A stretch of DNA of 64,000 nucleotides from Shigella phage SP21535, in the sequence record PQ615101; one strand, written 5' to 3'. Position numbers and translations under genes: made by a program. The notes beneath the pieces were generated by a model that did not search any database, had not been told where the DNA came from, and was given only the letters and a program-made list of their open reading frames with translations. Positions 60,824 to 62,163 of the stretch are shown one piece after another. How positions within the stretch are numbered: the stretch's first letter is position 1; the number at the start of each line of letters is the position of its first letter.

Positions 60824-61384
60824 ATGATTAATAAAATTGTGCATGAAATGGCTTTAAACGGAGATTCATATAAAATATCTGCCGTAGTTGAAAATTTCAT
60901 ACTTAATAAAGTAAAAGAATATTTCACTGATTGTTCAGTTAGTTATCAAGAAAAAATGGTTTTAACCGATGATACTGAAAAATCAAATAATTTGTTTTGT
61001 TCTAATTTTATAACTAAGAAGCGTACTAGAAGATTTGATATTGTTATTTCTCGCAACGGTAAAAAGCATATAATTGAAATTAAACACCAAGTTGGTGGAG
61101 GTACAGCTATTGATTCGGTTGGAATATATTTAGAAGATAAAGAGAAATTAAAAGAATACACAAAAACTGAAAACCCTGTGTCATTGATGATATTAGATTT
61201 TTTGCCATGCGGATATTATCCACGTAATAAATGGACAAAAAGAGAATCATTTACTGATAATCCAACCATCCAAGCAAGGTTTAATGAATATGCTAAATCA
61301 CAAAACGTGTTAGTATTACTATCAAATACATATGATGAAGAATTATATAATTCGTTTTTTGCTGCAATAAATGAGAGAATATAA
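60824..61384 (+). CDS. PD-(D/E)xK nuclease-like protein, translationally coupled to dam
   Basis: 186 aa; [21 protein letters not shown] gives D-x13-E-x-K with hydrophobic strand context; stop overlaps dam ATG (TAATG). Confidence 0.55.
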
Positions 61385-62163
61385 TGCTAGGAGCTATCGC
61401 GTATACAGGTAATAAACAGGCATTATTACCTGAACTTAAGCCTCATTTTCCAAAATATGACAGATTCGTGGATTTATTTTGTGGAGGTTTATCAGTGTCC
61501 TTGAATGTCAATGGTCCTGTATTGGCCAATGATATTCAAACACCAATTATTGAAATGTATAAATGTCTTATTGATATATCATGGGATGACGTATTAAAAG
61601 TAATAAAGCAATACAAACTATCAAAAACATCAAAAGAAGAGTTTTTGAAATTACGTGAAGATTATAATAAAACTAGAGATCCTCTTTTACTTTATGTTCT
61701 TCATTTTCACGGGTTTAGTAATATGATTCGTATAAACGATAAAGGAAATTTTACTACTCCGTTTGGAAAAAGAACTATAAACAAAAATAGTGAAAAACGC
61801 TTTAATCACTTTAAACAAAATTGTGATAAAATAATCTTTAGTTCATTGCATTTTAAAGATGTCAAAATTCTAGACGGCGATTTTGTATATGTAGATCCTC
61901 CGTATCTTATAACAGTTGCTGATTATAATAAATTTTGGTCAGAAGAAGAAGAAAAAGACCTTTTAAATCTTTTAGACTCTTTAAATGACAGAGGAATAAA
62001 ATTTGGACTGTCGAATGTTTTAGAGCATCACGGAAAGGAAAATACTCTTCTTAAAGAATGGTCTAAAAAATATAATGTTAAGCATCTTAATAAAAAATAC
62101 GTCTTTAACATATATCATTCCAAAGAAAAGAATGGAACTGATGAAGTATATATTTTTAATTAA
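61384..62163 (+). CDS. dam: DNA adenine methyltransferase Dam
   Basis: 259 aa as T4 Dam; DPPY catalytic motif; FCGG SAM-binding motif. Confidence 0.9.

Follow-up and report, generated by a model that had tools for sequence, protein, structure and literature searches.

The stretch of 64,000 nucleotides (nt) of Shigella phage SP21535 DNA analysed here (sequence record PQ615101; hereafter the window) carries, between the primase gene 61 and the dCTPase gene 56, an open reading frame (ORF) of 186 amino acids (aa) immediately followed by dam, the gene of a Dam-family N6-adenine DNA methyltransferase (Table 1). This region is 97-99% identical to Tequatrovirus genomes of the T2/HY03/IME537 type. The initial annotation had described the ORF as a PD-(D/E)xK nuclease-like gene coupled to dam and had taken it for an inserted module preceding an orphan methylase gene. 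The ATG-initiated ORF is present in the sequence as described, and it does end in a TAATG in which its stop codon and the dam start codon have one base in common, from which we infer that translation of the two genes is coupled. However, the insertion reading did not survive the comparison with related genomes, and we propose instead that the two genes form a candidate restriction-modification pair. The product of dam is 95.8% identical to T4 Dam and 98.1% identical to T2 Dam.

Table 1. Features of the interval between genes 61 and 56, in window positions
Feature	Position	Strand	Remarks
Gene 61, primase	59508..60536	+	
66-aa membrane-type ORF, PHROG 2024	60533..60733	-	Hydrophobic; 4-nt overlap with the end of gene 61; faces the cassette
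Cassette as a whole (promoter-like site + nuclease-like gene + dam)	60745..62163	+	One presence/absence unit among Tequatroviruses
539-bp stretch missing in T4	60758..61296	.	Window/T4 pairwise alignment
Sigma-70/T4-early-type promoter-like site, GTTTACT, 17 nt, TGgTATTAT	60769..60798	+	Consensus scan, 9/12 with TG; TTTACT at 60770-60775, 17 nt, TATTAT at 60793-60798, TG ahead
Inverted repeat CTCAGC (60778-60783)/GCTGAG (60809-60814)	60778..60814	.	Imperfect 18-nt arms; spans the -10 region
Shine-Dalgarno-like GAGGA	60812..60816	+	7 nt ahead of the ATG; read from the sequence
Nuclease-like ORF, 186 aa, ATG start, putative R subunit	60824..61384	+	E23, D72, E85, K87; invariant GTAIDS 93-98
TAATG stop/start overlap, nuclease-like gene/dam	61382..61386	+	TAA 61382-61384; dam ATG 61384-61386
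dam, Dam-family N6-adenine DNA methyltransferase, putative M subunit	61384..62163	+	Pfam MethyltransfD12 (PF02086), 1.9e-50; NCBIfam TIGR00571 'dam', 1.7e-68
Gene 56, dCTPase	from 62209/62224	+	

The early promoter that had been assigned to the nuclease-like gene can be found at its place, but a scan of this AT-rich region returned no more sites than shuffled sequences did, so the site counts as a consensus match only. It is part of the cassette and is missing in T4, where the deletion took it away. The CTCAGC/GCTGAG inverted repeat around it is real (one match in the whole window against 0.03 expected by chance); it had also been called the hallmark of promoter modules elsewhere in the window, but a search of the 64,000 nt for this hexamer pair returned none beyond this site. 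Promoter/stem-loop cassettes (PeSLs) have been published for T4-type phages (PMC2839356, PMC4122927), and by analogy they may offer a plausible frame for a promoter with an inverted repeat upstream of the nuclease-like gene. The top promoter-like match of the region, TGGACA, 18 nt, GATAAT (10/12, at 61232-61261), lies inside the 3' part of the nuclease-like ORF, upstream of dam, and might allow independent transcription of dam.

Fold and family of the 186-aa protein

The AlphaFold2 model of the 186-aa protein (predicted local distance difference test score, pLDDT, 79; predicted template modelling score, pTM, 0.79) has the alpha-beta-beta-beta-alpha-beta order of the PD-(D/E)xK core fold, and its structural matches are likewise restriction-endonuclease-like, in agreement with the initial annotation. 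The catalytic residues named there, D72, E85 and K87 with E23 upstream in AVVENF, hold as well, although the spacing is D72-x12-E85-x-K87 and not x13. In the model, E23 is on helix 1 (residues 15-33), D72 on the strand 67-77, and E85 and K87 on the strand 80-88, which is the arrangement of the superfamily, namely, an acidic residue on strand 2, (D/E)xK on strand 3 and often a Glu on helix 1. All four residues are invariant in an alignment of eight family sequences reaching down to 32% identity, and so are D72-I-V-I, K81-H-I, K87-H-Q, G93-T-A-I-D-S, P118, S120, D125 and G130. By this model, the protein has a restriction-endonuclease-like fold with an intact and conserved E...D...ExK set, and is a predicted nuclease.

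The best whole-protein structural match is MunI, a site-specific type IIP enzyme of similar size, and EcoRI/MunI-like type IIP enzymes are the closest whole-chain structural neighbours. Since Can2, McrC, Bax1 and Hjc-like proteins are also among the hits, the fold superfamily is functionally broad and the sequence does not reveal specificity, one might argue for a PD-(D/E)xK nuclease unrelated to GATC or methylation, serving in structure-specific repair or recombination or in non-specific degradation of foreign DNA, which merely shares an operon with dam. The match to a site-specific enzyme of similar size speaks against such a role, as does the linkage to Dam-type genes described in the next section, and we consider it rather improbable.

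In profile searches, the protein belongs to PHROG 8706, 'unknown function' (5.7e-116), and matches the PADLOC profile REase_II (9.1e-5). Its Pfam matches are all below threshold and all to restriction enzymes, the best being DpnII (E-value 0.0045, with 16.8 bits where the cut-off is 23) and BanI (0.0093); half of the eight family members match DpnII (best 8.3e-5), and four of the eight match BanI. An NCBIfam search with the protein gave no meaningful match, and a PDB sequence search with the protein and with the family profile returned zero matches even at an E-value of 10. The family is very small: it comprises 10 clusters in an index of 5.8 billion proteins, and an exhaustive HMMER search of 1.8 billion proteins gave 11 representatives, of which two, being repeat proteins, are probably spurious. 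When IMG/VR was scanned with the family patterns, a single locus came up, identical to the window gene.

DpnII/MboI-type systems also consist of a PD-(D/E)xK endonuclease beside a D12-class GATC methylase (e.g. DpnM). The relationship to DpnII was examined further. We used 15 aligned database proteins carrying PF04556, one of which (P0089) is named DpnII of S. pneumoniae; they were retrieved with a DpnII sequence that had been verified by a match to the full Pfam model (2.7e-100) and by 99% identity to cluster P0018. In hhalign, the family and these 15 sequences align over 34 columns (P-value 4.4e-4, probability 33%), and the aligned segment is the catalytic hairpin with a glycine-rich loop (RFDxVI...IE[IV][KN]..GGG[TS]; on the DpnII side KRFDFVIK..YLIEVNFYSGGGSKLN). 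In this local similarity the third catalytic residue differs, being K here and N in the DpnII alignment. Furthermore, the 186-aa protein matches only positions 152-235 of the roughly 278 positions of PF04556, and the N-terminal ~150 residues of DpnII (~288 aa) are unmatched. Because the N-terminal half of DpnII has no counterpart, with the score of 16.8 against 23 bits and an alignment confined to the catalytic hairpin, membership in the DpnII family was rejected; a remote relationship to DpnII is possible, judging from the hairpin. DpnII/MboI systems also differ in their carriers, which are bacterial, while the carrier here is a virulent phage with hydroxymethylcytosine (hmC) DNA.

Profile similarity to EcoRI was not found (hhalign P-value 0.15, in an unrelated region). 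Two look-alike pairs of strings, EIKHQ/EAKHQ and GTAIDS/GNAIER, come without profile similarity and are spaced differently (6 residues apart here, ~24 in EcoRI), and we treat them as anecdotal. GNAxER is the recognition motif of EcoRI/MunI-like enzymes, and the 186-aa protein has GTAIDS, not GNAxER. MunI and EcoRI recognize AATT-core sites and have methylases other than Dam.

Distribution of the gene pair and its linkage to Dam-type methylases

In a tblastn search, full-length copies of the nuclease gene turned up in 154 phage records, almost all of them 95-100% identical. Among these are three T2 genomes and M22342.1, an old T2 record in which only dam is annotated. The gene is labelled 'hypothetical' throughout, bar one mislabelled T2 record. 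In that record (AP018813.1, 16004-16540) the ORF is called 'head outer capsid protein', probably by an annotation slip. Since T2 and about 150 Tequatroviruses carry the gene at the same position, it is by this comparison a conserved but unnamed Tequatrovirus gene and not a private insertion, with a stump left in T4 and nothing in T6.

In T4, tblastn recovers residues 159-179 only, in an unannotated 309-bp gap between gene 61 and dam. The 539 bp missing there form a clean deletion with a 4-bp direct repeat, ATCA, at 60758-60761 and 61297-61300 of the window, and with them have gone the promoter-like site and codons 1 to ~158. T4 is thus a deletion derivative that keeps codons ~159-179, and not the ancestral state into which a module was inserted. 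T2 and the T4 stump have a further change in common, namely, a 1-bp deletion at codons 178-180 (TTCGTTTTTT -> TTCATTTTT; ~61355-61361 in the window, 2530-2546 in the T2 sequence L002, ~2560 in the T4 sequence L001). In T2, it shifts the frame of the last seven codons, giving a 181-aa product whose stop lies 13 nt from the dam start and is uncoupled from it; field isolates mostly carry the unframeshifted 186-aa allele. Because T2 and the T4 stump have the same 1-bp deletion, the comparison points to a stepwise decay of the nuclease gene in the laboratory T2/T4 lineage, in which dam was kept. The Dam proteins of T2 and T4 are regarded as stand-alone, 'orphan' methyltransferases, though the M gene is the same as here; T4 Dam is solitary through the deletion of its upstream partner, whereas Dam is accompanied in the window and about 150 relatives.

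As the gene is frameshifted in T2 and deleted in T4, it is dispensable in laboratory phages, and the protein could be conceived of as an inactive or decaying remnant, or as a non-catalytic DNA-binding partner of Dam. We judge this the least probable of the explanations considered, and very unlikely in itself, since some 150 genomes carry the gene at full length and at 95-100% identity and its catalytic residues are invariant even among distant homologs. In addition, the proportion of nonsynonymous differences (pN) between the gene and its homologs is 0.24-0.49 and that of synonymous differences (pS) 0.62-0.87, with the synonymous divergence (dS) saturated. Because pN is far below pS, the gene is, on this measure, under purifying selection, which also argues against a remnant.

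A search with the whole interval between genes 61 and 56 sorted 552 records into coverage classes. About 150 hold the full block, the T4 type reaches ~79-80% coverage, and a large class stands at 47%, including T6, RB5, RB14, RB18, Shfl2, HY01 and others. At the T6 junction, ...GTCCTCCTT (window 60744) is joined directly to ATTGCTT... (window 62163/62164). T6 thereby lacks exactly the promoter-like site, the nuclease gene and dam, with the missing block ending at the dam stop codon. Since T6-type phages miss the block as one piece, the mobile unit is, as read from these genomes, the promoter-like site, the nuclease gene and dam together, and not a nuclease gene inserted before a resident dam as the initial annotation had it. 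The genotypes are therefore three: both genes (~150 records), nuclease gene lost and dam kept (the T4 type, ~30), and both absent (the T6 type, several hundred). This fits the 179 records with dam at 90% identity or above, since the ~150 two-gene records and the ~30 T4-type ones add up to about that number. A nuclease gene without dam was found in zero of the records compared, so that among them the methylase occurs alone but the endonuclease does not.

The cassette has sharp edges and is the minority state in Tequatrovirus. Such a sharp presence/absence polymorphism at a conserved site, in T-even genomes that are rich in free-standing homing endonucleases, with segF just downstream in T4, might also be produced by a selfish homing-type endonuclease that cuts the cassette-less T6-type 61/56 junction in mixed infections and copies the cassette there, with dam as a passenger. 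In a few Tequatroviruses, such as fPS-90 (LR215723.1) and FL08 (PP400785.1), the place of the cassette between genes 61 and 56 is indeed taken by an annotated homing endonuclease. However, the 186-aa protein is not of the GIY-YIG or HNH type usual in T-even phages, and the minority state of the cassette does not fit either. Most of all, a free-standing homing endonuclease moves alone into an intergenic site, but this gene is present or absent only with dam, and a Dam-type methylase always goes along with it, even at unrelated positions. We therefore regard homing as very unlikely.

The linkage extends well beyond Tequatrovirus. Every homolog examined, down to 32% identity, lies immediately upstream of a D12/Dam methylase gene, overlapping or abutting it, so that the adjacency typical of type II restriction-modification systems is found in all contexts examined. 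There are three such genome contexts: between genes 61 and 56 (the window, T2, MX01 and L008-L012), between rIIB and the topoisomerase gene (KPV15), and upstream of rIIA (L006). The Dhakavirus MX01 homolog (64% identity) is in the same place as in the window with the same 1-nt overlap, and that of Klebsiella phage KPV15 (Jiaodavirus; 43%) overlaps its Dam-type gene by 7 nt. In L006, a divergent T4-like phage, the pair is directly upstream of rIIA and rIIB. Each of the metagenomic homologs, P0006 and P0009 at 48-57% identity as well as the more distant P0011 and P0013 at 32-33%, has a D12/PHROG-56 methylase directly behind it, and an overlapping or abutting junction is kept in MX01, KPV15, L005, L006, L007 and L008. 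Furthermore, the identities of the nucleases to the window protein (0.64, 0.57, 0.42, 0.33, 0.32) fall in the same rank order as those of the partner Dam proteins (0.76, 0.73, 0.62, 0.55, 0.52). Because the linkage persists and the identities rank together, the nuclease gene and dam are, on the available genomes, inherited as a pair, diverging and moving together. These observations bear directly on the view that the nuclease only shares an operon with dam, since overlapping or abutting adjacency is kept at 32% identity and at three genome positions with co-ranked divergence, and a chance arrangement would be very unlikely to last in the hyperplastic regions of T4-like genomes.

Klebsiella phage KP179 (L022, MH729874.1, 2303-4603) has no ortholog of the 186-aa gene at its dam locus; a different pair is found upstream of dam. 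Its first gene, for a 210-aa protein that weakly matches the Hjc/PD-(D/E)xK type (KVDIVASKNGETLVIDVK, D-x12-D-x-K; Pfam Hjc 7e-4, below the cut-off), overlaps by 17 nt a second D12-class methylase gene, annotated as MjaIII-like. This second pair may be a further restriction-modification-like cassette, which suggests that cassettes of a nuclease and a D12 methylase are exchanged at this locus.

A candidate phage-borne restriction-modification system

Taking fold and linkage together, we favour, with somewhat better than even confidence, the reading that the 186-aa protein and Dam make up a compact type II restriction-modification cassette carried by the phage, which probably acts at GATC and is kept from cutting by Dam methylation. 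The 186-aa protein would be its endonuclease half and Dam its methylase half, both behind one promoter-like site. Since its methylase partner is Dam, the endonuclease is most simply taken to be GATC-directed and blocked by N6-methyladenine. It would recognize GATC, the Dam site, or a site that includes it, and would cut DNA lacking this methylation there. Dam would protect the DNA of the phage itself, and its glucosylated hmC may shield it additionally. The targets would be cytosine DNA that is unmethylated or under-methylated, such as that of co-infecting rival phages, fast-replicating plasmids or prophages, or phage DNA that contains cytosine. Losing only the nuclease would be harmless and would leave an 'orphan' Dam, as in T4, while losing only Dam would be counter-selected, and the asymmetry of the genotypes fits an endonuclease that is harmful without its methylase. 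The earlier idea of a nuclease acting with Dam is supported in part, by the restriction fold and the Dam linkage, but a methyl-directed nuclease attacking non-hmC DNA is less supported than a restriction enzyme blocked by methylation.

There is a viral precedent for such a pair. Chlorovirus PBCV-1 encodes CviAI, in which the GATC N6-adenine methylase M.CviAI (A581R) and an endonuclease (A579L) are expressed early (PMC7248222). As proposed here, a restriction-modification pair with a GATC adenine methylase is carried by a lytic virus; PBCV-1 is a eukaryotic algal virus, though, and the likeness is one of gene content. Among the differences is that of the target. The DNA of the algal host is not Dam-methylated and is an obvious target, which has no equivalent here.

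Several points weigh against this reading. The usual enterobacterial hosts are Dam+, so that host DNA is protected and the target is not obvious. Reportedly, T2 dam- mutants are viable, though the T2 nuclease allele is frameshifted. GATC specificity rests on the linkage to Dam, as the DpnII match is below the cut-off and covers the generic catalytic hairpin only. That the nuclease gene never occurs without dam has little statistical weight, because few independent events are involved, namely, one T4-type deletion and one indel of the whole cassette. Finally, glucosylated hmC DNA resists 94% of the type II enzymes tested (PMC7653180), therefore Dam may be unneeded for self-protection.

The frequency of GATC in these genomes adds little on either side. 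Among all 256 tetranucleotides, GATC is the most depleted one in the window, with 72 occurrences where 196 are expected (ratio 0.37), and also in samples of T6 (L014; 0.33), RB69 (L015; 0.31) and KPV15 (L017; 0.19). E. coli phage RB49 shows no depletion (L016; 1.02), and the Acinetobacter T4-like phage AM101 only a mild one (L018; 0.78). Depletion is therefore independent of the presence of the cassette. That enterobacteriophages avoid GATC has long been noted, and the causes, MutH among them, are debated (PMC5014478). Since the depletion is as strong in the cassette-less T6, and equally in RB69, and older host-based explanations exist, we rejected it as evidence for specificity; it is consistent with a GATC nuclease circulating in Tevenvirinae but no evidence for one.

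On the other hand, the Dam+ state of the hosts would offer an obvious target to a DpnI-like type IIM nuclease. Such an enzyme would cut Gm6ATC in the cytosine DNA of the host, glucosylated hmC would shield the phage, whose hypermodified genome resists most type II enzymes, and Dam would make or complete the substrate; the strict linkage of nuclease and methylase and the promoter-like site common to both would be explained equally well. DpnI has a PD-(D/E)xK catalytic domain too and acts at the Dam site, only on methylated GATC, for which it uses an extra winged-helix methyl-reading domain (PMC12707154). However, this domain has no counterpart in the 186-aa protein, which is without any separate methyl-reading domain, and DpnI is absent from the structural hits; moreover, a Dam of the phage's own would be superfluous in Dam+ hosts. 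We accordingly think this explanation improbable, to about the same degree as that of a nuclease unrelated to methylation.

Under the favoured reading of a methylation-blocked restriction-modification pair, the 'orphan' Dam of T4 looks like a remnant of a phage-borne cassette of this kind. T4/T2 Dam is a classic model methyltransferase whose advantage for the phage has, to our knowledge, stayed obscure. If it started out as one half of a restriction-modification cassette, and in many phages still is, there is a genetically testable hypothesis for GATC methylation in T-even phages, and a virulent, hypermodified phage would join the short list of viruses with a restriction system of their own, possibly an anti-phage one. 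In its strongest form, which we hold to be unlikely though not negligible, the cassette would be a working GATC weapon in an hmC-DNA context, cutting GATC not methylated by the phage Dam, including that of the cassette-less T6-type rivals that form the majority, and of other co-infecting elements. Self-protection would then be the long-sought function of T2/T4 Dam, and the weapon would contribute to the GATC depletion seen in the Tevenvirinae samples, RB49 apart. A search of the accessible literature, which excludes most subscription papers of older date (among them that of 1988 on T2 dam, to which record M22342.1 belongs), returned no description of the ORF or of a partner nuclease of T2/T4 Dam. 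The analysis also delimits a restriction-enzyme-like family that is very small and had no name so far (PHROG 8706), and which could yield an enzyme unusually tolerant of modified cytosine, and opens about 150 deposited genomes to re-annotation.

Features flanking the cassette

A terminator-like hairpin on the plus strand (60696-60721; 11 pairs and a T-run) follows gene 61 and lies inside the 66-aa minus-strand ORF. In T4, the DNA of this ORF is present with a 2-bp insertion before the start codon and is unannotated in AF158101.6; the ORF itself is kept in T2 and in T6, where it is annotated as 'dam.1'.

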